A DNA stretch of 64,000 nucleotides, taken from positions 1,632,001-1,696,000 of the forward strand of contig CAWHDR010000001.1 in the NCBI GenBank assembly GCA_963828165.1, given 5' to 3'. Shown in pieces: positions 4,978 to 56,072 of the stretch (positions are counted from its first letter, which is position 1; each line of letters starts with the position of its first letter). A program made the position numbers and the translations under genes. The notes under the pieces were generated by a model. That model was given only the letters and a program-made list of their open reading frames with translations, did not search any database and was not told where the DNA came from. Origin of the DNA: an uncultured Chloroflexia bacterium. Lineage in GTDB: Bacteria > Chloroflexota > Limnocylindria > Limnocylindrales > CSP1-4.

Positions 4978-6687
4978 GCAGGCGGACGTTGTTCCTCATC
5001 CCCGCCCGCGGTGGCAGCAAACGCATCCCCGGCAAGAACCTGCGCAGCCTCGCGGGGATCCAGCTCGTGGCCTGGGCGGGCCGGATCGCCCAAGCCGCGG
5101 CGACGCCATGCTGACCTCGTCGTCTGCTCGACCGACGATCAGGAGATCGCGAACGTCGCCTCGACCTGGGGGATCCGTGTCCTGGACCGACCCGACGCCC
5201 TGGCCACCGACACCTCGACGTCGCTCGAGGTCGCGATCCACGCCATCGACGCCTTGGTCGTCGACGGCGAGCCGATCGACCTCTTCGCCCTCGTCCAGCC
5301 GACCTCGCCGCTGACCGATCCGGTCGATCTCCGCGCCGCGATCGAGCTCGCTCGCGAGACCGGCCGGTCCGTCGCGAGTGTCGCGGCGAGCCATCCGGCG
5401 GCGTGGCATCACGGCGTCGGCGTCGGCGCCGACGGCGGCCTCCGCCCGGTTGACACCGAGGATGCCGATCGCCTGCTCACCGGCGCCTTCTTCGTGACGA
5501 CGCCGGACGCCCTCCGCCGCAGCGGTCGCTTCGTCGAGCCGGGTGTGACCCTGGGCTACAGCACGCCGCCGGAGCGCTCGATCGACATCGACGAGCCGGC
5601 CGACCTCGCGGTCGCGGCTGCGCTCTTCGGCATCCGCGAGGTCGCGCCGTTCCGCCTCGGCAGCCGCGAGATCGGTGCCGCGGGAAGCGGTGTCTTCGTC
5701 ATCGCCGAGGCGGGCGTCAACCACGATGGCGATGTCGAGATCGCCCACCGGCTCGTGGAAGCCGCGGCCGACACCGGCGCAGATGCCGTCAAGTTCCAGA
5801 CCTTCGTGCCCGATGCCCTCGCATCGGCCGCCGCGCCCACCGCTGCGTACCAGCGCGCCACCGAACAAGGGCAGGATCAGCGGGCGATGCTCCAACGGCT
5901 CGCCCTGCCGACGGATGCCTGGCCCGCGCTCCGGCGACACGCCCTCGATCGCGGCATCGCGTTCCTCTCGGCGCCGTTCGATGACGCCTCCGCTGACCTC
6001 CTCGACGCGATGGACGTGCCGGGATTCAAGGTGGGATCGGGTGAGCTCACGAACCTGGCGTTCCTCGAGCGGTTGGCCCGCCGTGGCCGCCCGATGATCG
6101 TCTCGACCGGCATGGCGACGATGGTCGAGGTCGCCGCGGCGGTCGACACGATCCGAGCTGCCGGCCTCACGGAGCTCGCTCTCCTCCATTGCGTTTCCGC
6201 CTATCCCGCCGCGCCCCACGACGCGAACCTGGCGGCGATGCGAACGATGCGCGACGCGTTCGGGCTGCAGACGGGCTGGTCGGACCACACGCCCGGCACC
6301 GAGCTGCCGATCGCCGCGACCGCGCTGGGTGCCACGATCATCGAGAAGCACCTGACGCTCGACCGGACTCGCCGCGGGCCCGACCACAGGATGTCGCTCG
6401 AGCCGTCCGAGTTCGCGACGATGGTCGCGGCCATCCGGGCCACCGCGGACGCAGTCGGCGACGGCGACAAGGTCCCGACCGCGGCCGAGCGCGAGGTCGC
6501 CGCCGTGGCGCGGCGGAGCCTGCACTGGGCTCGTGACCTATCCGCGGGCGAGACCATCGCCGAAGGTGACCTGCTCGCGCAGCGACCGGGCACCGGCATC
6601 TCCGCGGCACGGCTGCACGAGCTCGTCGGCCGTCGGACGACCCGTGCCGTGCAAGCTGGCGCGATGGTGAAGGAAGGGGACGCGTGA
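4974..6687 (+). CDS. CMP-nonulosonate synthetase (NeuA/LegF-like) fused to nonulosonate synthase (NeuB/LegI-like, C-terminal SAF); frameshift near 5105-5114
   Basis: GTG 4974 frame gives IPARGGSKRIPGKNL and stops at 5114; the second frame continues with CSTDD, QPTSP, SIDID, then IAEAGVNHDG, KFQTF, LHCVSAYP, SDHT, IEKHLTLD. Confidence 0.85.
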
Positions 6688-7844
6688 AGACCATCGCGGT
6701 CCTCACGACCGGCCGCCAGGACTGGGGGATCCTGCACTCGACGGCGGTCGCGATCCGGTCGCACCCCGAGCTCGAGCTGCGGCTGATCGTGGGCGGAACG
6801 CACCTCTCGAGATGGCACGGGCAGACCATCCGGGACGTCCGGGCCGATGGGTTCGAACCCGACGTCATCCTGCCGTGGCCCGGCGAGGACGACGCGACCG
6901 AGGACCCGCCCGCCGCCACCCAGGCCGCGAGGTCGCTCGAAACGGTCGGGGCGGCGCTGCGGCAGGTGCCGCCGGATGCGCTGCTGCTGGTCGGGGACCG
7001 GCTCGAGACGGCCGCGGCCGCGCTCGCCGCGACCCTGGAGCGCGTCCCGATCATCCACCTCCACGGTGGCGAGCAGACTCTCGGCGCCTTCGACGATGCG
7101 CTCCGCCACGCCATCACAAAGCTCAGCCACCTCCATCTCGTGAGCCACGAGGAGCACGCCAAGCGAGTGATCGCGATGGGCGAGGATCCAGCCAGCGTCC
7201 ACGTCGTCGGGGCGCCCGGATTGGACGCCGCCGCCCGCGACGACCTGCCGTCGCGCGAGGAGCTCGCCGGGACCTCGGAGATGGCGCTCGACGCGCCGAT
7301 CGTGCTCGTGACCGTCCACCCGACGACCTTGGAGCAGGATCCGATCCGGCGCGCGCGCGGTCGCCGTCGTCGCGGCGATGGATGCGGTCGAGGCGACGTA
7401 CGTCATCACGATCCCGAAGCCGACCCGGGCGGGGATGCCGATTCGTGACCTGACTGCAGGCGGCCGCCGCCGGACCCGGTCGCGTTGGGGTCGAGGCCCT
7501 TGGCGACGCGGCGCTACTGGGGTCTGCTTCGGATCGCCGACGCGATGCTCGGCAACAGCTCGAGCGCGCTCATCGAGGCTCCGGCCGTGGACCTGCCGGC
7601 CGTCGACGTCGGCGATCGCCAGGCCGGCCGACGGGCAGGCCCCAACATCCTCCACGCCCCCGCCGACCCGCAGTCGGTCACCGACGCCCTGCGCGAAGCG
7701 CTCGATCCAGCAACACGGCGCCGGGTCATCGCCGCCCGCCCCGCGCTCGTACACGGTCTGGCCGGGGCGCGCATCGCGGATATCATCGCCGCATGGCGAC
7801 CACCCAGACCGCCGCGCAAGCCCCCGATCACGGTGCCGGGCTGA
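6684..7844 (+). CDS. neuC: NDP-N-acetylhexosamine 2-epimerase (hydrolysing), NeuC/LegG-like; several indels at about 7340-7515
   Basis: TTGRQDWG, GDRLE, HLHGGE, TVHPTT in the first frame; YVIT in a second; GNSSSALIEAP...GDRQAGR in a third frame ending at 7844. Confidence 0.85.
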
Positions 7845-8506
7845 TCGCGGCGCCGCTCATCGTGCTCGGCGGCGGGGAGCACGCTCGCGTGGTCATCGAC
7901 GCGGCCCGCTCGCAAGGCGACCGCTGGGTCGTGCAGGGGTACGTGGCGCCAGAGGCGGGCGCCGCCACGGCCCCGGAGGTGCCGTGGCTTGGCAACGACG
8001 AAACGCTCGCGGCGCGTCTCGAGGACCTCGCCCCGCCGGACCGGCCGTGGCTCGTCCTTGGCTTCGGTGGCGGCGAGACCAGCGGCGCCCTCGCGGCCCG
8101 AACGGCCACCACCCAGCGATTCCCGGACGCGCGATGGGCGACGATCGTCCACGCGGCGGCCTGGGTCTCGCCGAACGCCAAGCTCGAGCAAGGCGTCGTG
8201 GTCCTGGCTGGCGCGGTCGTCAACGCCGGAGCGCAGGTGTTCCATCACGCCATCGTGAACAGCGCCGCGGTCGTCGAGCACGACGTCGTCATCGGCGCCG
8301 GCAGCCACGTCGCGCCGGGCGCGGTCATCGGCGGTGGGACGCACGTCCACGAGCACGCGTTCATCGGCCTGGGCGCACGCGTCCGCGATCATATCGAGGT
8401 CGGTGCCGGGGCGGTCGTCGGGATGGGCGCCGTGGTCGTCGAATCGATCGAGCCGGGCGCGACCGTCGTGGGCATCCCAGCCCGCCGGCACGAGCCCTCC
8501 TCGTGA
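7793..8506 (+). CDS. Hexapeptide-repeat sugar acetyltransferase (NeuD/PglD family)
   Basis: GGGEHARVVID, NSAAVVEHD, left-handed beta-helix repeats, VVGIPAR. Confidence 0.88.
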   Translation: MATTQTAAQAPDHGAGLIAAPLIVLGGGEHARVVIDAARSQGDRWVVQGYVAPEAGAATAPEVPWLGNDETLAARLEDLAPPDRPWLVLGFGGGETSGALAARTATTQRFPDARWATIVHAAAWVSPNAKLEQGVVVLAGAVVNAGAQVFHHAIVNSAAVVEHDVVIGAGSHVAPGAVIGGGTHVHEHAFIGLGARVRDHIEVGAGAVVGMGAVVVESIEPGATVVGIPARRHEPSS

Positions 8507-9540
8507 CCAGCGCCCTCGACGCCTACCTCGTCGCCGAGGAAGCGACCCTTCGCGATGCGATGGCCGCGGTGGATCGCGGCGCCGCCCGGATCGCCCTCGC
8601 CGTGGACCCGGAGGGCCGACTGACCGGCGTCGTCACGGACGGCGACCTGCGTCGCGCCCTGCTCGGCGGCACGGACCTCCAGGACCCCGTCGCCCCGGTG
8701 CTGACCCGCCGCTACCTGTCCGTGACGGCCGGGGACGGCCGGGCGGCCGCGCTGGAACTCATGCGCGCCCGTCGCATCGATGCCGTCCCCGTGGTCGATG
8801 CCGATGGGCGTCCCGTGGGCCTCCACTTGCTCCAGCAGTTCCTGGAGCCGGTGACCCGCACGAACTGGGCGGTCATCATGGCCGGCGGGCAGGGTGTGCG
8901 CCTTCGCCCGCTGACTGATGACCTGCCCAAGCCGATGATCGCGGTCGCCGGCCGGCCCATCATCGAGCGCCTGGTCCTGCACCTCGTCGGCTTCGGCGTG
9001 AAGCGCATCTTCGTGGCCGTCAACTACATGGGCGACGTCATCGAGGAACACCTCGGCGATGGCTTGCGGCTCGGGGTCCGCCTGGACTACCTGCGCGAGG
9101 AGGAGGCGCTCGGCACGGCCGGCGCGCTCGGGTTGCTGCCGGAGCCGCCGACGGAGCCCATCCTCTTGCTCAACGGCGACCTCGTCACCTCCGCGGACCT
9201 GGGCGGCCTGCTCGATGCGCATGTCGCCGGTGGCTACCGGGCGACCATCGGGACCCGGCGATATCTCCACACGGTCCCGTTCGGTTGCGTCGAGCGCGAC
9301 GGCAACCGCGTGATCGGGCTCGAGGAGAAGCCCACCCTGGAGCGCGAGGTCAACAGCGGGATCTACGCCCTCGACCCATCGGTCGTGGCCCGTGTCGGCC
9401 CGGGCCGCGTCGACACCCCGGATCTCATCGTCGACCTGCTCGCCGCGGGCGAGCCCGTCGGGGCATTCGAGATCGAGGACGAATGGATCGATGTCGGCCA
9501 GCGCGAACAGCTGGCCGCGGCTCGCGGCGTCGCCCCGTGA
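8503..9540 (+). CDS. CBS-domain sugar-phosphate nucleotidyltransferase (PtmE/LegX-like)
   Basis: TDGDLRR CBS pair, MAGGQGVRLRPLT..PKPM, LGTAGAL, NGDL; GTG 8503 overlaps the previous stop. Confidence 0.9.
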   Translation: MTSALDAYLVAEEATLRDAMAAVDRGAARIALAVDPEGRLTGVVTDGDLRRALLGGTDLQDPVAPVLTRRYLSVTAGDGRAAALELMRARRIDAVPVVDADGRPVGLHLLQQFLEPVTRTNWAVIMAGGQGVRLRPLTDDLPKPMIAVAGRPIIERLVLHLVGFGVKRIFVAVNYMGDVIEEHLGDGLRLGVRLDYLREEEALGTAGALGLLPEPPTEPILLLNGDLVTSADLGGLLDAHVAGGYRATIGTRRYLHTVPFGCVERDGNRVIGLEEKPTLEREVNSGIYALDPSVVARVGPGRVDTPDLIVDLLAAGEPVGAFEIEDEWIDVGQREQLAAARGVAP

Positions 9541-10529
9541 CCCTGCGCGGCACCAAGGTCCTCGTCACCGGAGCGGACGGGTTCATCGGCAGCCACCTCA
9601 CGGAGAGACTCGTCGTGGAGGGCGCCGACGTCCGAGCGTTCTGCCTGTACAACTCGCGCGGCTCGGCAGGCTGGCTCGATGAGACCGACCCGGCGACGCG
9701 GGCCGCCCTCGACATCCGTCTGGGTGACATCCGCGACGCCCGCTTCGTGGCCGCCGCGACCGAAGGCGTTGAGATCGTGTTCCACCTGGCCGCCCTCATC
9801 GCGATCCCGTATTCGTACGCCGCGCCGCAATCGTTCATCGACACGAACGTGTCCGGGACGCTGCATGCCCTCGAGGCGGCTCGGTCGGCGGGGGTCCGGC
9901 GTTTCATCCAGACGTCCACGAGCGAGGTCTACGGGACGCCCGAGACCTTGCCCATCCTCGAAACCCACCCTTACGCCGCGCAATCGCCCTACGCGGCGTC
10001 GAAGGTGGCGGCGGACCAGCTGACCCTCGCGTTCGGGAAGAGCTTCGAGCTGCCTGTCGTCGTGCTTCGGCCGTTCAATACCTACGGGCCTCGACAGTCG
10101 GAGCGGGCGGTCCTGCCGACCATGCTCCGCCAGCTCCTCGCCGGCAGGACGGAGGTGCGACTCGGACGCCTGGACCCGAGGCGCGACATGACATTCGTCG
10201 CGGACACCGTGGACGGCTTCGTTCGCGCAGCCACCGCGCCGGGCATCGAGGGCGAGGTCATCCAGCTCGGCACCGGACGGAGCGAATCGATCGCGGAGCT
10301 CTTCGCCCTCGCAAGCGGGATCCTCGGGGTGGACGCCCGGGCCGTCGAGGACCCGGAGCGGATGCGACCCGATGCCAGCGAGGTCATGGTCCTCCAGGCC
10401 GATCCGTCGCGCGCCCGCACGCGGCTGGCCTGGGAGGCACGAACCAGCCTCGAGGGCGGGCTGCGCGCGACCATCGACTGGCTCCGCACCCAACCGGCGA
10501 GCAGCGATCCGGATCGTGTCCAGACCTGA
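9537..10529 (+). CDS. legB: NAD-dependent NDP-sugar 4,6-dehydratase (LegB-like)
   Basis: GADGFIGSHL, HLAALIAIPYSY, TSTSEVYG, YAASK, RPFNTYGPRQS. Confidence 0.85.
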   Translation: MTLRGTKVLVTGADGFIGSHLTERLVVEGADVRAFCLYNSRGSAGWLDETDPATRAALDIRLGDIRDARFVAAATEGVEIVFHLAALIAIPYSYAAPQSFIDTNVSGTLHALEAARSAGVRRFIQTSTSEVYGTPETLPILETHPYAAQSPYAASKVAADQLTLAFGKSFELPVVVLRPFNTYGPRQSERAVLPTMLRQLLAGRTEVRLGRLDPRRDMTFVADTVDGFVRAATAPGIEGEVIQLGTGRSESIAELFALASGILGVDARAVEDPERMRPDASEVMVLQADPSRARTRLAWEARTSLEGGLRATIDWLRTQPASSDPDRVQT

Positions 10530-11679
10530 CCGGCGGATCCCGCTGTCGGAGCCTTCGATCGGCGGGAACGCCGCCGCGTACCTCGAGGAGTGTCTCGCCA
10601 CCAACTTCGTCTCGTCGGTCGGCCCGTTCGTGGAGCGATTCGAGCGGTCCTTCGCGGCGGCCGTCGGGGCGCGCTTCGCTATCGCCTGTTCGAGCGGAAC
10701 GGCGGCGATCCACCTGGCGTTACGGGTTCTGGATGTCGGTCCGGGCGACGACGTCCTGGTGGCGGACCTCACGTTCGTGGCCTCGGTCAACCCCATCGCC
10801 TACGTCGGGGCGCGCCCGATCCTCGTTGACGCGGAAGCGGTGACCTACAACCAGGACCCGGCCCTGATCCTGGCGGAGCTCGATCGCCGCGCCGCGGCCG
10901 GTGAGCGCCAGCCCGCCGCGATCGAGCTCGTGCACCTCGTCGGGCATCCGGCCCCGATCGACGAGGTCGTCGCGGCCGCGGCGCGCCACGGCATCCCGAT
11001 CATCGAGGACGCATCGGAGGCGCTGGGGGCGCGCTACGCCGACGGCGGGCACGCTGGCCGGCACGTCGGCACGATCGGCCGGCTCGGCGCGTTCAGCTTC
11101 AACGGCAACAAGCTCATCACGACCGGCGGCGGCGGGATGATCGTCACCGACGACGAGGAGCTCGCCACACGGGCGCGCCACCTCTCGACGCAGGCTCGTC
11201 TGCCGGGTCTCGCCTACGACCATGACGAGGTCGGCTACAACTACCGTCTATCGAACCTCGCGGCGGCTCTCGGTCTGGCACAGCTCGAGGAGCTCGACCG
11301 GCTGCTCACGGCCCGCCGGGACATCGCGGCACGGTACGACGCGGCCATCGACGGGATCGAGGGGATCCGGACCGCCCCGCGAGCGAGCTGGGCGGATCCG
11401 TCCTTCTGGCTCTACTCGGCTGCGCTGGACGAACCCGATCCGGTCCGACGCGATGCGGTCATCGCCGCGCTCGCGGCGGACGGCATCGAGGCACGACCCA
11501 TCTGGCGTCCGATCCACGGGACCCGCCTCTACTCGGACACGGCCCGCCTCGGGGGCGAGGTCGCCGACCGGATCTTCGCGAGCGCCCTCTGCCTGCCCTC
11601 CTCGTCGTCGCTATCGCGTGACGATCAGGACCGCGTCATCGAGCGCCTCTCGGCCGCCCTCGCGGAGGTGCCGGTCTGA
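10516..11679 (+). CDS. legC: DegT/DnrJ/EryC1/StrS aminotransferase (LegC-like)
   Basis: FVSSVGPFV, SSGTAAIH, IEDASEALG, FSFNGNKLITTGGGG, GYNYRLSN, LPSS. Confidence 0.88.
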   Translation: MSRPDRRIPLSEPSIGGNAAAYLEECLATNFVSSVGPFVERFERSFAAAVGARFAIACSSGTAAIHLALRVLDVGPGDDVLVADLTFVASVNPIAYVGARPILVDAEAVTYNQDPALILAELDRRAAAGERQPAAIELVHLVGHPAPIDEVVAAAARHGIPIIEDASEALGARYADGGHAGRHVGTIGRLGAFSFNGNKLITTGGGGMIVTDDEELATRARHLSTQARLPGLAYDHDEVGYNYRLSNLAAALGLAQLEELDRLLTARRDIAARYDAAIDGIEGIRTAPRASWADPSFWLYSAALDEPDPVRRDAVIAALAADGIEARPIWRPIHGTRLYSDTARLGGEVADRIFASALCLPSSSSLSRDDQDRVIERLSAALAEVPV

Positions 11680-16232: not shown

Positions 16233-17563
16233 CTAGGGCTCGGTCGTCGGTTCCGGGGTCGGCCAGGGGATGGGCTCGACGCCAGGCTCGGGGAAGAGCC
16301 GCTCGGCGACGTCGCGGATCGCCGCGAGGTCGGGCTGGAGCGACGATCCGTAGCGGGTGTCGACCGATCGCACCAGGGGGTGGCGGATGATCGATCGCGT
16401 GACCGCGTCGTCGTCGATCTCATCCATGAGCGCCGCGAGCTGCGGAAGCCTGGCCGGTGGCAGGTCGGTCCGCACCGCGTCGCCCACCGCGTCCATGAGT
16501 CCCGGCAGCTCCCACAGCACGGAACCGTCCTGCGTGACCGCATCCCGCAGGGCGACGAGGACCTGCTGCTGGCGGATGGCCCTCGTGAAGTCGCTGTCAC
16601 CGAGGCCCTTGCGGGAGCGGACGTAGGCCAGCGCGGTCTTGCCGTCGAGATGGTGGGGTCCGACGCCGATGGAGAAGCCGACGTTGTCGTATTCCGGGTC
16701 GTCGATCGGCTGCGTGACCTCGATGTCGACGCCCCCGACCGAATCGATCATGTCGCGGAAGCCGTACAGATCGATCTCCGCGTCGTAGTGGATCTCGATA
16801 CCGAGCAGCGCGCCGATGGCGTCTCGAAGCGCCTGCATGCCGCCACCGGGGAATTCGTCGGGGTGGCCGTCGGCGTACGCGACGAGCGAGTTGAGCTTCG
16901 GCCCGTAGCGGTCGCCGTTGCCGAGCGGGACATCGATCAGGTCGCGCGGGACCGAGACCATGCTGATCGTCCGGCCGACCGGGTCGATCGAAGCGACGAT
17001 CATCGTATCGGTGAGGTTGGTCTTCCGGGTCGGACTGCGGTCGACCCCGACCAGCAGCACGCTCAGCCGCTCGTCGTTCCCCGGCCCGCCGCGGGTGGCG
17101 GCCCGTCAGCCGGGTCGTCCGGAGGCTCGAAGATCCGGGCGAACGTGTCGCGGAAGACGGTCCCGTACTGGTAGACGAGGACGTGCGGGACCGCGACGAA
17201 CAGCACGATGGCGGCCAAGCCCACGAGACCCACGCGTCCCGTCGGACCGCGGTTGCTGGTGTCGAGGAACGCCTGGCCGACGGCGAGCAGCCGCCAGCCT
17301 AGGAGCAGGAGGTTGATGGTCAGGAGTGTCGCCAGGATGGGCGGGGACACGACGAAGGCAGCCAGCCGCGTGAGCGACTGCGTCGAATACAGGAGGAAGC
17401 CCAGGAGCAGGAGCACGAGCGACGGGATCATGAACAGCGCCGCGAGGCGGGACCGCCGGTTGAGCGCCTGACCGAGGCCCGGGAGCACCGCCGAAAGACC
17501 TGCCGCGGCGAGGCGGCGGCGGTCGATATGTCCGGTTTCCGGCCGGACGCGGCGGGCGTGCAC
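16233..17563 (-). CDS. LCP (LytR-CpsA-Psr) family protein with N-terminal TM domain; single frameshift near 17090
   Basis: TM ORF 17063-17563 joins by a one-base shift to ..NDERLSVLLVGVD..LTDTMIVASID..SVPRDL..ALAYVRSR..SDFTRAIRQQ. Confidence 0.85.
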
Positions 17564-17747
17564 GACGGGCGATGTTCCTCGATTCGGTGGGTGGTCGGTC
17601 CGCGGCGGAGTCTACCCGGAAGCGGACGTGGGGACGCCGGGCGATCGATCAGCCTGCCATGACCGCCCGGCGTCTTGTCCTGTGACGCACTCGGGCCCGC
17701 GAGCGTGACGCGCTACCCTTCGGTTGCCAGAACGCACCCGAATTCGC

Positions 17748-17786
17748 TAGGACGATAGTCCTATCTCGACGCGGCAGAGGTATCCT
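17748..17786 (+). promoter_or_regulatory. Palindromic operator TAGGAC-N4-GTCCTA over the -35 position, with -10 TATCCT, upstream of cpaF
   Basis: Perfect 6-4-6 inverted repeat at 17748-17763; TATCCT at 17781-17786, 17 bp downstream. Confidence 0.55.
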
Positions 17787-17890
17787 CGCCGAGCGGGCCT
17801 GCTCATGCGGCTCGGCGAGGATCGAAAACGGGGGCCCGGACCAGCACTCATCCGGGAGCGACTCGTAGGCCGGACAGGGGAACACACGTC

Positions 17891-19705
17891 ATGTCGTTGA
17901 TCCAGCGTGTCGAGCGGGCACAACAGCAGCGCTTGGAGACCGCCGAGGCCAAGGTGGCCGTACCGGTCGTCCCTCCGCCTCCGGTCGCGGTCCCGATCAG
18001 CTCGGAACGACGCGCGGCTCGAGAGGAGCTGCTGCACGAGATCAGGCTCCGCCTGCAGACCGAGGTCATGAGCGCCTTCGACACGCTCCTCGACCTCGCC
18101 AATCCGGACGAGCTCCGCGCCAAGGTCACGGCGATCGTCGAACGCGTCGTGACCGCGGACGGGTACGCGGTGACCCGTGACGAGAAGGCACACCTGATCG
18201 AGGAGCTGATCGGGGAGGTCGGCGGGCTCGGTCCGCTCGATCCGCTGCTGCTCGACGAGACGATCACGGAGATCATGGTCAACGGGCCAAGCCACGTGTA
18301 CGTCGAGCGGGCGGGCAAGATCCAGCGAGTCGACAGCTACTTCCTGAACGACGAGCACGTCCTGCGCGTCATCGACCGGATCATCACGCCGCTGGGACGG
18401 CGCATCGATGCGACGAGCCCCAGGGTCGACGCACGCCTGGCGGACGGCTCCCGCGTGAATGCCGTCATCGAACCGCTCTCGCTGGTCGGACCGGTGATCA
18501 CGGTCCGAAAGTTCCCGGCCAAGCCAGTCACCGTGGACGACCTCATCCGGTTCGGCACGGCAACGCCCGAGATGTTCGACTTCCTGAACGCCTGCGTGCG
18601 GGCACGGCTGAACGTCTTCGTATCCGGCGGCACGGGCTCGGGCAAGACGACGACCCTCAACGTCCTGTCCTCGTTCATCCCCGAGGACGAACGGATCGTC
18701 ACGATCGAGGACGCCGCCGAGCTGCAGCTCCGCCAGGTGCATGTCGTCACGCTCGAATCACGCCCGCCGAACATCGAGGGCACGGGCGAGATCACCATCC
18801 GGGACCTGTTGCGCAACGCCCTGCACATGCGCCCCGACCGCATCATCGTCGGGGAGTGCCGCGCAGGCGAGGCGCTCGACATGCTCCAGGCGATGACGAC
18901 CGGCCAGGATGGCTCGTTGTCGACCGGTCACGCGAACACCTCCGCGGACATGCTCCGCCGGCTCGAGACCATGGTCCTCATGACCGGCTATGAGCTGCCG
19001 CTCCGCGCGATCCGCGAGCAGATCGCCTCTGCCGTCGACCTCATCGTCCATACGGCCCGCCTCAAGGATGGCTCGCGCAAGATCGTCAACATCACCGAGG
19101 TGCTCGGGATCGAGGATGACGAGATCCTGATGCAGGACATCTTCGCGTTCGAGCAGACCGGCATCTCGGAAGGCAAGGTCGAGGGGCTGCTCAAGCCGAC
19201 CGGCGTCCGGCCGACCTTCATGGGCAAGTTCAAGCAGAGCGGGATCGATATGCCCGCCGACGAATTCGGCATCCCGCCCGAAGACCCCGATCACCCGGAT
19301 GCGACCCGCTCGCGGAAGGGCCGCTGGGTTGGCGGCGAAGCGGTCGACGTGGTCCGCCCGTCCGTCGGCCAGGGTCGTGCGGTCACGGCCGGCGGCATGG
19401 TCTATGTCTCGTCGATCGGGCCCGTCGATCCGGAGACCGGTCAGGTCGTCAGCAGCCAGATCAAGGAGCAGACACGCCAGTGCCTGCAGAACCTCAAGGC
19501 CAAGCTGGAAGCCTCCGGGAGCTCCCTCGAGCAGGTCGTGTGGGCGAACTGGTCGCTGCGCGATCCCGCGGAGTTCGACACGTTCAATCAGGAGTGGGTC
19601 CGCTGGTTCCCGGGTGACGCGCCGATCGGCCAGGGCACGCTGATGCCCACGCAGCACAAGCGCGCCGGCTTCCGGGTCTCGATCGGGGTCATCGCCGAGG
19701 CCTGA
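17891..19705 (+). CDS. CpaF/TadA secretion ATPase fused to a C-terminal Rid (RidA/YjgF-like) domain
   Basis: GGTGSGKTT, TIEDAAEL, MRPDRIIVGECR; C-terminal AVTAGGMVYVSS.GPVDPETG...IKEQTRQCLQNLKAKLEASGSSLEQVV...FDTFN is Rid-fold. Confidence 0.9.
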   Translation: MSLIQRVERAQQQRLETAEAKVAVPVVPPPPVAVPISSERRAAREELLHEIRLRLQTEVMSAFDTLLDLANPDELRAKVTAIVERVVTADGYAVTRDEKAHLIEELIGEVGGLGPLDPLLLDETITEIMVNGPSHVYVERAGKIQRVDSYFLNDEHVLRVIDRIITPLGRRIDATSPRVDARLADGSRVNAVIEPLSLVGPVITVRKFPAKPVTVDDLIRFGTATPEMFDFLNACVRARLNVFVSGGTGSGKTTTLNVLSSFIPEDERIVTIEDAAELQLRQVHVVTLESRPPNIEGTGEITIRDLLRNALHMRPDRIIVGECRAGEALDMLQAMTTGQDGSLSTGHANTSADMLRRLETMVLMTGYELPLRAIREQIASAVDLIVHTARLKDGSRKIVNITEVLGIEDDEILMQDIFAFEQTGISEGKVEGLLKPTGVRPTFMGKFKQSGIDMPADEFGIPPEDPDHPDATRSRKGRWVGGEAVDVVRPSVGQGRAVTAGGMVYVSSIGPVDPETGQVVSSQIKEQTRQCLQNLKAKLEASGSSLEQVVWANWSLRDPAEFDTFNQEWVRWFPGDAPIGQGTLMPTQHKRAGFRVSIGVIAEA

Positions 19706-19919
19706 CCGAGGGTTCGCATCCCGGGAACCAGATTTCTACGGCCACGGCATCGTGGACGCCAATGCCACGGTGACCGAAACCTTCGAGTTCCCGGAGTAGA
19801 TCATCCTGCCGGTTCGACCGCCGGGCGCCGGCGGTCGAGAGGCTTCCAACCGAGCAGGTCCTACTGAGGCGCCCAGGAACACGCCGCGACGCGCCGGCCA
19901 CGGCCGGCGCTTCTTGATA

Positions 19920-50884: not shown

Positions 50885-52378
50885 ATGGCGTCCCTCCACG
50901 ACCTCCACCGCGCGCTCTTTCCGACCGCTCGTCCGCTCGGGGCGATGGACCTCGCGCCCGAACGCGCGGAGCGCGAGGTCGGCTGGGTCCGGGTCCTCAA
51001 AGCCCGCGTGCCCGCGTTCGAGGCGCTCGAGACCGGCGACCTTGCCATCATCCCGGGCGCGGCGCTCGCCGTGGTGGCGCCCAGGCCGGCCCAGGTCGAG
51101 GAGCTCGCCGTCGCCCTGGCCCGTGCCCGCGTGCCGGCTGTCCTGCTCGTGGAGGGCGAGACCGGCAGCGACGTCCTGGCGGCGCTCGGCGAGGCGGTGA
51201 CCACAGCCGGGATCACTGCCCTCCACCTGGGCCGGATGGATCCGGTGGCCCTGGAACGGAGCGTGATCGGGTTCCTCGTCAATCGACGAGCGGAGCTTGA
51301 CCGCCGCGCAGCCGACCTCGAGGCCCAGCTGGCGCGGTTCGCGCTGCTGGGTCACGGCCTGGACATGCAGGCCGCGACCATCGGCTCCTTTCTGGGGCGC
51401 GCGGTCGTCATCGAAGGGCGGCGGGGGGACCCCATATCCGTCCACGCCCCCGCCGACGTCCCGTCCGCGGCTGCCGCCATCGCCCGCTACCTGGCACGGC
51501 CGTCTGGCGGCGCGGCCCTTCGGGTCGACATCCCGGCCCCGGCCGGCGAGCCAGGCGTGGGCGGTCGCCTCGTGCTGCTTGGAGACGAGGCGCCCAACGA
51601 GCTGGAACGGATCGCGGCGGACCGGATCGTGGCCCTGCTCGCCCTCGAGCTGTCGCGCGACGCGGCCGTCCGTCAGGCGCGTGACGAGACCAGGCGCGGC
51701 GAGCCGTTGCCGGCCGATGGCCCGCCCTGGGTGGTCATGCTCGCGAGCCAGCACGCGGCCGACGGCCCCGACGACATCGCGGCCCGCGAGGAGACGCGGG
51801 GCGAGCTGCGGCTGCTGATGTCGCCGCGACGGCTCGCGCTTCGCGGCAGCTCGGAGAGCCTGGAACTGCGCCTCGTGGCGGCCGCTCCGGCGGACGATCC
51901 CGGAGGCCTCGCGACGGCCGGCCGCCTGGCGACGTTCCTCGGCCGCACGGTCGCGGTCTCGCGGCCGTTCGTCGAGCCTGGAGCCCGGCCGGCCGCGGAG
52001 GCCGCCGCCCGCGCGACCCTCGAGGCCGCCGACCTGCTCGTCGCTCCGCCTCCCGTTGTGCGCGCCGCACGGTTGCCGGCCTATCTCCTCATCGGCAACG
52101 TGCGCAACCTGCCCGACGGCGTGCGTCAGGCGCGCGAGCTGCTCGGGCCGATCCTCGTGGGGCGGCCAGAAGTCCAGCACGAGCGGCTGGAAACGCTCCG
52201 TGCGGTCCTCGGGTCGCCGAGCCTCAACGAGGCAGCGACGCGCCTGGGGGTACACCGCAACACGGTCACGTACCGGATCGCGCGACTGGAAACGCTCGCC
52301 GAATGGGATCTCGCCGACCCCGATCTCCGCTTCGCGCTGGAGCTCGCGGTCCGAGTAGTGCAAAACGAACAAATCTGA
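50885..52378 (+). CDS. PucR family transcriptional regulator
   Basis: N-terminal PucR-like VGWVRV domain; C-terminal AATRLGVHRNTVTYRIARLE HTH. Confidence 0.9.
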   Translation: MASLHDLHRALFPTARPLGAMDLAPERAEREVGWVRVLKARVPAFEALETGDLAIIPGAALAVVAPRPAQVEELAVALARARVPAVLLVEGETGSDVLAALGEAVTTAGITALHLGRMDPVALERSVIGFLVNRRAELDRRAADLEAQLARFALLGHGLDMQAATIGSFLGRAVVIEGRRGDPISVHAPADVPSAAAAIARYLARPSGGAALRVDIPAPAGEPGVGGRLVLLGDEAPNELERIAADRIVALLALELSRDAAVRQARDETRRGEPLPADGPPWVVMLASQHAADGPDDIAAREETRGELRLLMSPRRLALRGSSESLELRLVAAAPADDPGGLATAGRLATFLGRTVAVSRPFVEPGARPAAEAAARATLEAADLLVAPPPVVRAARLPAYLLIGNVRNLPDGVRQARELLGPILVGRPEVQHERLETLRAVLGSPSLNEAATRLGVHRNTVTYRIARLETLAEWDLADPDLRFALELAVRVVQNEQI

Positions 52379-52466
52379 GCGCCATCGGGGCGTGTCTCCG
52401 GGGCGTTCGGCGCTGCTATGCTGGTCAATGACGGCGATTTGGGCGCGATTCATGCGCCATGCACAA
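52356..52466 (+). promoter_or_regulatory. GS promoter with extended -10 and two PucR-type boxes
   Basis: TAGTGCAAAACGAACAA (52356-52372) and TCATGCGCCATGCACAA (52450-52466) share TGC-N5-G-N-ACAA; TG-C-TATGCT at 52414-52422. Confidence 0.5.
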
Positions 52467-52516
52467 CTTCGTCACCGGATCCCGGCCCCAGACGGACCGA
52501 CGTGCAGGAGATCACA

Positions 52517-54654
<2,138 letters not shown>

Positions 54655-54661
<7 letters not shown>

Positions 54662-54689
54662 GGCTCGCCTCGTACTGAGGCTTCGCCTC
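54655..54689. repeat. 17/18-bp tandem duplication spanning the GSIII stop codon, each unit a mini-hairpin
   Basis: GTACTGAGGCTCGCCTC followed by GTACTGAGGCTTCGCCTC. Confidence 0.8.
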
Positions 54690-54716
54690 GGCTCCGTCCC
54701 AGGAGGCATCGTCCCC

Positions 54717-56072
54717 GTGGCCAGCAGCCCCGAATCCAGCGCCAAGATCGAAGCGGCCCAGGCATCAGGCATCCGCTTCGTCCAGCTCCAGTTCACCGAC
54801 ATCATCGGCCACGTCAAGGCGGTCACGATCCCGATCCACCGGCTCGAGGAGTCGGTCGGGCACGGGACGTGGTTCGACGGCTCATCGATCGAGGGATTTA
54901 CCCGGATCGCCGAGTCCGACCAGTACCTCATGCCCGACATGGAGACGTTCGCGGAGATCCCGTGGCAGCGCGGATCGGGACCGCGCGGGACCGCCCGCGT
55001 CATCTGCGACGTGTTCACGCCCAACGGCGAGCCGTTCGTCGGTGACCCGCGGTTCGTGCTGCGTCGCCAGGTCGAGCGCGCGAAGAACCTGGGGTACGTC
55101 GTCAACTTCGGCCCAGAGCTGGAATTCTTCCTGTTCCGCCGTTCCGAGGACGGCTCGATCGAGCCGCTGCCGCACGACCAAGCGGGCTACTTCGACTTCT
55201 CGACCGACCTCGCCGGGGAGATCCGCCAGGACATGGTGGATGCGCTCGAAGCGTTCGGCATCAAGGTCGAGGCGGCCCACCACGAGGTCGCCGTCGGACA
55301 GCACGAGATCGACTTCGAGTATTCCGATGCGCTGACGACGGCCGACAACGCGGTCACCTTCAAGTTCGCGCTCAAGGCCATCGCCCAGCAGCACGGGCTC
55401 TACGCGACGTTCATGCCCAAGCCGATCCACGGGATCAACGGCTCCGGGATGCATGCCCACCAATCGCTATGGTCGATCGCCGAGGGGCGCAACGCCTTCG
55501 CGGATGCCACGAACCCATACGGGCTGTCCGATGTGGCGCGCTCGTACATGGCCGGGATCCTCGCCCACGCTCGCGGCATGATCGCCGTCCTCGCACCGCT
55601 CGTGAACTCGTACAAGCGCCTCGTGCCGGGCTATGAGGCCCCGACCTACCTGACGTGGGGCCGCACCAACCGGTCCGCCCTCATCCGCGTGCCGATGGTC
55701 TCGCCCGGGCGCTCCGTCGAGGGCACCCGAGCGGAAGTGCGCTGTCCCGACCCCTCGTCGAACACGTACCTGGCGTTCGCGGCGATGATCGCCGCCGGAC
55801 TTGATGGCGTCGCGAAGAACATGGTGCTATCCGACCCGGTGGAAGAGTCCCTGTTCGAGATGGATGCGACACGGATCGCCGAGAAGGGCATCAAGGAGCT
55901 GCCCGGGACCCTGGGCGAGGCCCTCGACGAGCTCGAGCGCGACGACGTCATCCGCGAGGCCCTCGGAGATCACGTGTTCAGCCACTACCTCGAGGCAAAG
56001 CGCGCCGAATGGGACGAGTACCGGACCCAGGTCAGCGACTGGGAGGTCGAGCGCTACCTGGACCAGTACTAG
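54717..56072 (+). CDS. glnA: Glutamine synthetase type I (GSI-alpha-like)
   Basis: FDGSSIEGFTRIAESD, HHEVAVGQHEID, ATFMPKP..GINGSGMH, NSYKRLVPGYEAP, NRSALIRVP, EVRCPDP. Confidence 0.95.
   Translation: MASSPESSAKIEAAQASGIRFVQLQFTDIIGHVKAVTIPIHRLEESVGHGTWFDGSSIEGFTRIAESDQYLMPDMETFAEIPWQRGSGPRGTARVICDVFTPNGEPFVGDPRFVLRRQVERAKNLGYVVNFGPELEFFLFRRSEDGSIEPLPHDQAGYFDFSTDLAGEIRQDMVDALEAFGIKVEAAHHEVAVGQHEIDFEYSDALTTADNAVTFKFALKAIAQQHGLYATFMPKPIHGINGSGMHAHQSLWSIAEGRNAFADATNPYGLSDVARSYMAGILAHARGMIAVLAPLVNSYKRLVPGYEAPTYLTWGRTNRSALIRVPMVSPGRSVEGTRAEVRCPDPSSNTYLAFAAMIAAGLDGVAKNMVLSDPVEESLFEMDATRIAEKGIKELPGTLGEALDELERDDVIREALGDHVFSHYLEAKRAEWDEYRTQVSDWEVERYLDQY

Follow-up and report, generated by a model that had tools for sequence, protein, structure and literature searches.

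The structure of the CpaF/TadA-type ATPase of Tad pili has been solved for Caulobacter crescentus CpaF (9e24, 8rkd, and 8rjf), which contains a helical N-terminal domain, a second N-terminal domain (NTD2), and a RecA-like C-terminal domain (CTD). The first N-terminal domain (NTD1) is described as three helices comprising residues 80-149 (PMC11300603), and the hexamer as a C2-symmetric assembly of two trimeric halves (10.64898/2026.02.24.707734). Residue R347 of CpaF is reported to be an inter-chain arginine finger that contacts the γ-phosphate of ATP (PMC11300603, PMC12019362), and R347 and its equivalents are stated to be conserved in all type IV filament ATPases (PMC12019362). In the deaminase RidA, a protein of the Rid (YjgF/RidA) fold, Arg105 is described as essential for imine hydrolysis, and the clefts at the subunit interfaces of RidA-family proteins bind carboxylates (PMC4433059). 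Here we describe a gene that joins a CpaF/TadA-type ATPase to a Rid-fold domain in one open reading frame (ORF). The gene is located at positions 17891..19705 on the forward strand of the window, the 64-kb stretch of contig CAWHDR010000001.1 from an uncultured Chloroflexia bacterium (assembly GCA_963828165.1) that was analysed, which has an overall G+C content of 70%.

The fused gene is a genuine single gene, conserved across a Chloroflexota lineage of soil and freshwater, mostly labelled Candidatus (Ca.) Limnocylindria. The arginine finger of its ATPase is replaced by histidine, a change overlooked by an earlier note on this DNA, and this replacement together with the Rid domain is the signature of the fused family. 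The reading that we prefer, with a probability of about 0.4, is that the protein is a hexameric Tad-type ATPase, the C-terminal face of which would be capped or clamped by tethered Rid trimers.

Domain organization of the fused protein

The ORF starts with an ATG codon, encodes 604 amino acids followed by a stop codon, and has no interruption. Residues 113-390 match the Pfam family T2SSE (E 1.3e-59, 202 bits against a cut-off of 24.9), and residues 496-578 match positions 13-97 of the 121 in the Ribonuc_L-PSP profile (PF01042; E 5.6e-17, 62.3 bits against a cut-off of 27.3). The AlphaFold2 (AF2) model of the full-length protein has a mean predicted local distance difference test (pLDDT) value of 83.5, with low confidence solely at residues 18-32 and 476-490. 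The earlier note had described one uninterrupted ORF with a TadA ATPase, a linker, and a Rid fold, an arrangement that is borne out by Pfam, the alignment to CpaF, and Foldseek. The motifs that it quoted are also present, GGTGSGKTT at residue 246, TIEDAAEL at 271, IIVGE at 318, and TGQDG at 337, and an STGHAN motif starts at residue 344.

All parts of the gene described below are on the forward strand. The N-terminus (17891..18001) contains a conserved short helix, residues 3-16, followed by a proline-rich stretch with pLDDT values below 50 at residues 18-32. L3 and R6 of the helix are almost invariant even when unfused CpaFs are added to the alignment. The helical N-terminal domain (residues 38-111; 18002..18223) was delimited from the AF2 model, in which helices span residues 38-61, 63-67, 72-90, and 96-111, and from the alignment to CpaF, in which residues 68-111 pair with residues 101-146 inside the three-helix NTD1. 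The ATPase core, formed by NTD2 and the RecA-like CTD (residues 112-454; 18224..19252), was defined by the Pfam match, the alignment to CpaF structure 9e24, and column conservation. A linker of about 38 residues (455-492; 19253..19366), seen in the AF2 model and in the species-level alignment, carries the conserved short motifs L-P-P-G-E-F-G-I-P (454-462) and K-G-R (476-478). The Rid domain (residues 493-604; 19367..19702) was assigned by Pfam, Foldseek, the AF2 model, and alignments.

Residues 68-454 of the fused protein align to residues 101-491 of the 501 residues of the solved C. crescentus CpaF (E 2.4e-113). The ATPase is therefore complete, and everything after residue 454 is an addition to it. 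Identity between the core and ordinary CpaFs is 52-59%.

Conservation and distribution of the fusion

The 120 best relatives of the fused protein were collected from 5.8 billion clustered proteins. The earlier note had suggested searching for T2SSE/CpaF combined with Ribonuc_L-PSP, and the combination recurs: 119 of the 120 best relatives contain both families (PF00437 and PF01042), at identities of 74-96% and lengths of about 600 residues, and the lone exception is a 919-residue tandem ATPase (P0011). A scan of one genome per species provided 566 confirmed relatives, of which the best 80, with identities of 66-96%, are the source of all results on loci given here. A single tblastn segment runs through both domains in one frame and without a stop codon in 74 of the 80 loci. 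The same architecture in 119 of 120 proteins and 74 of 80 loci places the fusion far beyond chance.

According to their NCBI labels, 76 of the 80 loci belong to Chloroflexota (27 Ca. Limnocylindria, 29 'uncultured Chloroflexia', 18 unclassified, and 2 Anaerolineae). The remaining loci L039, L050, L071, and L080 are labelled Patescibacteria group, Dormiibacterota, Pseudonocardiales, and Verrucomicrobiia, and contain the fused gene at 67-73% identity. Since all the other loci are labelled Chloroflexota, the four odd labels suggest mistakes in binning or labelling more than a transfer of the gene. Clustering at 50% placed the fused form in few clusters (P0126 and fragments) among 34,857 CpaF-like matches. 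The corresponding ESM Atlas cluster of 976 members, most often from Chloroflexota, contains T2SSE in 100% and Ribonuc_L-PSP in 93% of members. In a FastTree phylogeny of the ATPase core, from which six fragment or odd rows and the sequence P0130 were left out, 43 fused rows are separated from 142 unfused representatives by a branch with a local support of 100. The stem of the fused clade has a length of 0.22, and the presence of one clade is consistent with a single fusion event.

A fusion of this kind could be an artefact, with separate cpaF and ridA genes joined by a lost stop codon or by an indel from assembly or sequencing. A search with the C-terminal 134 residues retrieved 301 Rid-only proteins of 73-235 residues, many of which are named RidA or 2-iminobutanoate deaminase, and several of which carry such names from NCBI or the Joint Genome Institute (JGI), for example 'RidA family protein'. 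Furthermore, the gene is split over two frames in loci L006, L013, L016, and L042, and it lacks the last 50 residues in L018. However, the frameshifted loci all come from a single series of metagenome-assembled genomes (MAGs; isolate names MFD...). At least L006 and L016 break within runs of C or G, and the break in L006 is inside the Rid domain, not between the domains. The sequence of the Rid-only protein P0363 (113 residues; L054:11416-11754) matches the end of the fused ORF of L054, which is uninterrupted, with 100% identity, and the protein is therefore an internal-start annotation and not a split gene. Most of the 120 proteins listed among the 301 short Rid proteins are on contigs of a few kb or less. 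At least some of the short 'RidA' proteins are thus internal-start annotations of the fused gene, and a minority may be true split forms. The lost stop or indel named in the earlier note as a possible source of the fusion disagrees with the one-frame genes from different species, with the fused best relatives, and with the conserved motifs carried by the linker itself. The artefact explanation is already largely refuted, and we consider it extremely improbable.

Among the other incomplete loci, the gene in L012 ends at a contig edge. In L018 (11620-11720), the Rid domain breaks off after a WANWS motif, at query residue 554, and is followed by unrelated sequence; either the copy is truncated or the locus is misassembled. 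Two short proteins, P0305 (217 residues) and P0318 (224 residues), contain the linker-plus-Rid module after a biotinyl/lipoyl or ArgR-type DNA-binding domain and have no ATPase. They are encoded on contigs of 1132 and 873 nt, and may be chimeric assemblies or real alternative fusions.

Arginine finger and active site of the ATPase

The residues of the fused protein were mapped to CpaF from a gap-free block in which residues 270-371 correspond to CpaF 305-406. The ATPase retains K252 (CpaF K287) in the Walker A motif GGTGSGKTT (residues 246-254; 18626..18652), E277 (CpaF E312) in the Asp box, E322 (CpaF E357) in Walker B, the conserved arginine R324 (CpaF R359), and the second His-box histidine H347 (CpaF H382), which is the histidine described at the γ-phosphate (PMC11300603). 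These residues, together with E273 and D274, are kept in all 117 close fused members. D180, R182, and R188, which correspond to CpaF D215, R217, and R223, are invariant in an alignment of 64 sequences, and R291, P292, N294, E296, G297, and G299 in the pore-loop region are invariant or almost so.

The position of the inter-subunit arginine finger, CpaF R347, is occupied by H312, with the codon CAC at 18824..18826. Histidine is present in 117 of 117 close and 52 of 52 species-level fused members, against arginine in 139 of the 144 nearest unfused representatives. One of the three unfused sequences with histidine, P0130, is a fragment that is 90% identical to the fused family. The replacement suggests an altered, and probably slower or regulated, turnover of ATP.

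The earlier note had instead drawn attention to the sequence GQDG as a changed His box. The residue in question, Q339 (codon CAG, 18905..18907), occupies the first His-box position, equivalent to CpaF H374. This position varies within the fused family, with Q in 82, H in 34, and N in 1 of the 117 close relatives and an even division between Q (26) and H (26) in the 52 species-level sequences, whereas the second His-box histidine is invariant. GQDG was therefore not retained as a change of significance. Another candidate family trait that was rejected is the loss of CpaF R387, the retraction-face arginine, which aligns with A352. Arginine or lysine is present at this position in none of the 117 closest fused relatives, compared with R in 101 and K in 9 of the 144 unfused sequences, but the species-level set has K in 19 and R in 5 of 52 sequences, so the loss does not characterize the family.

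The closest relatives of the ATPase core include natural metagenome proteins with two or three CpaF cores that have diverged from one another (among P0122-P0131, and P0011). The three cores of P0122 are 60-69% identical to one another, and the others, including P0124, P0125, and P0127, have two cores at 40-80% identity. The tandem proteins resemble the fused protein in their ATPase cores, and their stoichiometry is fixed covalently; they differ from it in having no Rid domain, and most of their cores keep arginine at the finger position. Named relatives of the closest unfused CpaF (P0134) are mostly labelled Firmicutes/Bacillota.

Remodelling of the Rid domain

The C-terminal domain adopts a Rid fold in the AF2 model and in Foldseek comparisons, contrary to the outcome that the earlier note had named as a refutation of its proposal. 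The Rid family is characterized by a chorismate-mutase-like beta-alpha-beta-alpha-beta fold. When the C-terminal part was modelled alone, model residues 21-134 had block-mean pLDDT values of 86-97, and residues 1-18 of the model were disordered. The best Foldseek matches in the PDB are RidA/YjgF structures, with plant RidA 5hp7 at E 4.8e-11, template modelling (TM) scores of 0.72/0.89, and a root-mean-square deviation (rmsd) of 1.7 Å; among the matches listed, the rmsd is 1.5-2.0 Å and the identity 27-37%. The sequence matches RidA proteins at E 1.3e-15, the closest being archetypal RidA, and scores 56.3 bits against the NCBIfam model TIGR00004, the cut-off of which is 106.25. The domain resembles RidA/YjgF/UK114 deaminases such as PH0854 (2dyy), TTHA0137 (2csl), and the plant enzyme in fold and sequence, and is predicted to form a homotrimer. 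Unlike these proteins, it lacks the equivalents of Arg105 and Glu120, is variable at the Tyr17 position, carries a motif of its own, and was never seen clearly stand-alone here.

The absence of the hallmark Rid residues, pointed out in the earlier note, agrees with the alignment to Thermus thermophilus TTHA0137, in which 'PIGQ' replaces 'PA-R' and 'RVSIG' replaces 'RVEVA'. Equivalents of Arg105 and Glu120 are therefore absent, and 'VSSI' stands at the position of the RidA 'VSGQ'. None of the 117 fused sequences has arginine at the Arg105 position, and the position of Tyr17 is occupied by L in 39, Q in 26, Y in 23, and other residues in the rest. Since the catalytic arginine is absent, the database names 'RidA family protein' and '2-iminobutanoate/2-iminopropanoate deaminase' are probably wrong for the members of this family. 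Rid4-Rid7 are also described as lacking the hydrolysis arginine and are presumed to have other functions (Niehaus et al. 2015, PMC4433059); the arginine position is Trp in Rid4 and Rid7 and otherwise a variable residue, and these groups keep the glutamate and mostly Tyr or Phe (PMC4433059). Compared by this published description, the fused Rid domain shares the missing arginine with Rid4-Rid7 and falls outside them, because it also lacks the glutamate.

The segment that would form the active site is near-invariant in the 117 sequences and reads P578-x-G580-Q581-G-T583-x-x-P586...R591-A-G593-F-R595-x-S597-I-G599, with mostly I or V after P578 (P-[IV]-G-Q-G-T...R-R-A-G-F-R-x-S-I-G). P578, G580, and Q581 next to the lost arginine are invariant or almost so, and S597 and G599 are conserved in the segment of Glu120. 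In the species-level set, Y505, Q581, and G599 are present in 52 of 52 sequences, R595 in 51, and R591 in 50. The mean column conservation is 0.94 in the ATPase core (residues 111-400), 0.86 in the Rid domain, and 0.72 in the linker. The ratios of non-synonymous to synonymous substitution rates (dN/dS; pairwise Nei-Gojobori) are 0.16 for the core (residues 111-445), 0.24 for the Rid domain, 0.48 for the linker, and 0.56 for the N-terminus, of which only the ranking is usable, because the 1,325 pairs (1,264 for the linker) are not independent and dS is probably compressed by the G+C bias of third positions. The Rid domain is under purifying selection, and this, together with the near-invariance of its would-be active-site segment, makes it look remodelled rather than decayed. 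The description of the domain as catalytically dead in the earlier note therefore holds for the absent deaminase arginine and glutamate; the decay that it implied does not agree with the selection on the domain and its own motif.

A complex model of three copies of the Rid domain reached an interface score (ipSAE) of 0.83, compared with 0.20 for the best control. Of proteins solved as pairs, 20 of 30 attained the mark used for this score, as did 1 of 23 proteins solved as single chains. At least 66% of contacts were shared between the runs, with partner pLDDT values of at least 76, and the predicted interface takes in domain residues 107-118, which constitute the remodelled P-x-G-Q-G-T segment. 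The model thus favours the Rid trimer expected by the earlier note, but may reflect the model's memory of the Rid trimers already present in the PDB.

The predicted trimer raises the possibility that the Rid domain is a structural handle, a ligand-free trimeric clamp that would stabilize the ATPase ring, or serve as a template for it, in the form of a dimer of trimers, in the way that tandem-fused CpaF chains would. The two trimeric halves of the C2-symmetric CpaF hexamer (10.64898/2026.02.24.707734) would suit such a clamp. Natural multi-core CpaF proteins are among the closest relatives, and two of them, P0123 and P0124, form the sister of the fused clade. However, structure alone does not explain the near-invariance of the polar surface or cleft residues Q581, T583, R591, and R595, and the low-confidence tether of about 30 residues makes for a loose clamp. 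We regard a purely structural role as possible, though not probable.

Genomic context

No Tad-machinery family was detected at E <= 1e-5 among the 50 distinct ORFs of the window that were scanned. The products of the 44 commonest neighbour clusters and the 46 same-strand adjacent genes in the 80 loci include no TadB/TadC (T2SSF), Flp, CpaB, or prepilin peptidase, and no second CpaF is encoded within 10 kb of the fused gene in the 80 loci. The statement of the earlier note that tadB, tadC, and flp do not flank the gene thus extends to these neighbours. A regular expression for Flp/TadE-like prepilins gave 0 matches in six frames of 1.38 Mb of window and locus sequence, which is a weak test. The ATPase displays most of the features of CpaF membership and lacks two, the trans arginine finger and the genomic association with cpaG/cpaH (tadB/tadC), pilin, and other Tad genes, none of which is among the scanned window and neighbour genes.

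The fused gene is flanked upstream by a LytR_cpsA_psr gene and a small unknown gene, both on the reverse strand, and downstream by a convergent gene for a secreted GSDH/PKD/DUF11 protein. The commonest neighbour is a YgjP-like metallopeptidase gene, located downstream in 16 of the 80 loci; a leucyl-tRNA synthetase (LeuRS) gene is upstream in 13, and synteny of the window type was found in 12-15. A conserved gene neighbourhood was rejected, because the best co-occurring cluster is present in merely 16 of 80 loci. Unrelated genes of housekeeping and metabolism make up its surroundings, and no theme connects them. In 40 of 73 loci, the gene upstream has the opposite orientation, and the upstream gaps are mostly 170-600 nt. 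The fused gene has no fixed gene partner among the neighbours scanned in the 80 loci, and behaves as a single-gene unit moving between genomic contexts. In one subclade, the DNA-uptake proteins ComEA (7 loci) and ComEC (4 loci) are encoded about 7 kb upstream, beyond leuS (13 loci), for example in L047:1-3509. This proximity may be plain synteny, and we do not read it as a functional link.

The missing Tad neighbours would be explained if the protein were a CpaF-derived ATPase recruited to another task, with an active site weakened by the exchange of the trans arginine for histidine. The family-wide H312, the conserved boxes that the gene carries upstream, its movement between contexts as a single gene, and the lack of a Flp-like prepilin motif point in this direction. 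However, the core is as similar to ordinary CpaFs as stated above, its pore-loop residues are nearly unchanged, the N-terminal helix and helical domain are kept, and no part of the protein has a lower dN/dS than the core. Recruitment to a different function therefore appears quite unlikely.

The earlier note had read the Rid domain as a metabolite sensor for keto or amino acids on an extra, regulatory Tad ATPase that would work beside a canonical cpaF and couple pili to metabolism. The carboxylate-binding clefts of RidA (PMC4433059) make such sensing conceivable, and the cleft segment is remodelled yet near-invariant, with the polar residues Y505, Q581, T583, R591, and R595 conserved. The Rid trimer on which a cleft depends is supported by the complex model, possibly as a remembered structure. 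However, it is precisely Arg105, which binds the carboxylate, that the domain has lost, a second cpaF is not found within 10 kb in any of the 80 loci, and the neighbouring genes share no theme. We consider this explanation unlikely.

Proposed function of the Rid domain as a cap

In our preferred reading of the protein as a capped Tad-type motor, the ATPase would still be hexameric and would work with Tad platform proteins encoded elsewhere. Two Rid trimers on its C-terminal face would form a non-catalytic cap or clamp, which would either fix the subunit stoichiometry or occlude the face proposed to serve retraction in C. crescentus CpaF. According to that proposal, the N-terminal face of CpaF drives extension of the pilus, and the C-terminal face engages the platform for retraction (10.64898/2026.02.24.707734). 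Occlusion of the face by the Rid trimers may bias the motor to one direction. Alternatively, a ligand that binds in the remodelled clefts between subunits may gate the motor. The change of the finger arginine to histidine would alter ATP turnover.

The closest experimental parallel is CpaF with mCherry attached to its C-terminus, which abolished observable pilus retraction; the authors ascribe the block to occlusion of the C-terminal face (10.64898/2026.02.24.707734). Like this construct, the fused protein has a folded domain on the C-terminus of a CpaF. Unlike the artificial and monomeric mCherry fusion, the Rid fusion is natural, conserved, predicted to be trimeric, and joined by a motif-bearing linker.

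Several points weigh against the Rid-capped motor. The protein scores 312.8 bits against the NCBIfam TadA-family model TIGR03819, below the cut-off of 373.15, and the loss of the trans arginine could mean that it is no longer a working motor. The R387 position on the retraction face is not consistently lost, since K or R is present in 24 of 52 species-level sequences. No Tad partner is among the scanned ORFs and neighbours, and the pilus role is therefore argued only from the similarity of the ATPase. Finally, the inversion model of CpaF comes from an unreviewed preprint and is based largely on AlphaFold3 models (10.64898/2026.02.24.707734).

A bolder form of the proposal, which we regard as a long shot, is that the Rid module is a natural clutch. 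The arginine finger may have been replaced by histidine when the Rid domain was acquired, which would have made the ATP turnover of the ring dependent on the module and the protein a ligand-gated or one-way form of a motor that otherwise runs in both directions.

Upstream boxes, terminator, and other genes of the window

Comparison of upstream regions identified two conserved boxes on the forward strand. Box 1, GGTTGCC-N5-GCACC (17722..17738), has the form GGTTGCC-N5-GCA(C/A)C across relatives and is palindrome-like, with GTTGC..GCAAC in some of them. Box 2, GGTATCCTC (17779..17787), contains the -10-like sequence TATCCT. In 18 of 52 upstream regions, box 2 follows box 1 at a constant spacing of 55-57 nt, and the ATG is reached after a variable 36 to 119 nt. 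The boxes are also found upstream of the fused gene in L001-L005, L007, L008, L015, L017, L019, L020, L024, L025, L027, L031, L033, and L048. Box 1 is a possible regulator-binding site, and the layout would fit a site near -61 of a promoter; a scan for the sigma-70 consensus found no promoter upstream. A riboswitch or other known RNA was rejected, since Rfam gave no match at E <= 1 in the region 17450-17950, and its matches across the window were limited to two tRNAs. RNAalifold of 17 upstream regions yielded -3.4 kcal/mol and no covarying pair. The lack of both an Rfam match and covariation makes the conserved boxes look like DNA sites rather than RNA structure.

A perfect 13-bp inverted repeat with a 15-nt loop (17782-17794/17810-17822) begins within box 2, some 70 nt ahead of the start codon. 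Hairpins that differ in sequence appear to occupy this place in relatives; a common structure is not supported by RNAalifold. Between the fused gene and the convergent gene, a G+C-rich, terminator-like hairpin is present at 19891..19910 on the forward strand, which is a weak signal because 1 was found against a shuffle mean of 0.7.

Elsewhere in the window, a cluster at 5011-11679 encodes a NeuB-like synthase with a SAF domain, a UDP-GlcNAc 2-epimerase, a hexapeptide transferase, an NAD-dependent dehydratase/epimerase, and a DegT-type aminotransferase, and looks like a pathway for nonulosonic (sialic-like) acid. Genes for a glycosyltransferase and a large GSCFA-domain protein adjoin this cluster. 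At 52418-56072, a gene for a type III glutamine synthetase (747 residues) is directly followed by one for a type I glutamine synthetase (486 residues), and a PucR-type regulator is encoded just upstream of the pair, at 50885-52378.

Implications

Public databases list proteins of this architecture as 'pilus assembly protein CpaF', and annotation pipelines either call the fused protein simply 'CpaF' or report its end as a separate, false 'RidA family protein'. A limited keyword search of the literature (CpaF/RidA, Limnocylindria pili/Tad) found no published description of a CpaF-Rid fusion, and the Rid family survey, in the sections available to us, mentions only Rid-Rid tandem fusions (PMC4433059). 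The fusion adds a non-catalytic use and a fusion partner to the Rid fold.

How a single CpaF ATPase powers both extension and retraction of the Tad pilus is an open question, for which a 2026 preprint offers the proposal that the ring turns over (10.64898/2026.02.24.707734). The fused family has a permanent, conserved, and probably trimerising domain at exactly the terminus where a bulky tag stops retraction by CpaF. If the protein is not a pilus motor, it would represent a secretion-ATPase core recruited to a new task. If the Rid module is indeed a clutch, the ATPase-inversion model could be tested naturally on this family. A fused protein that still drives pili would be a natural experiment on the control of motor direction and on the weight of the trans arginine.

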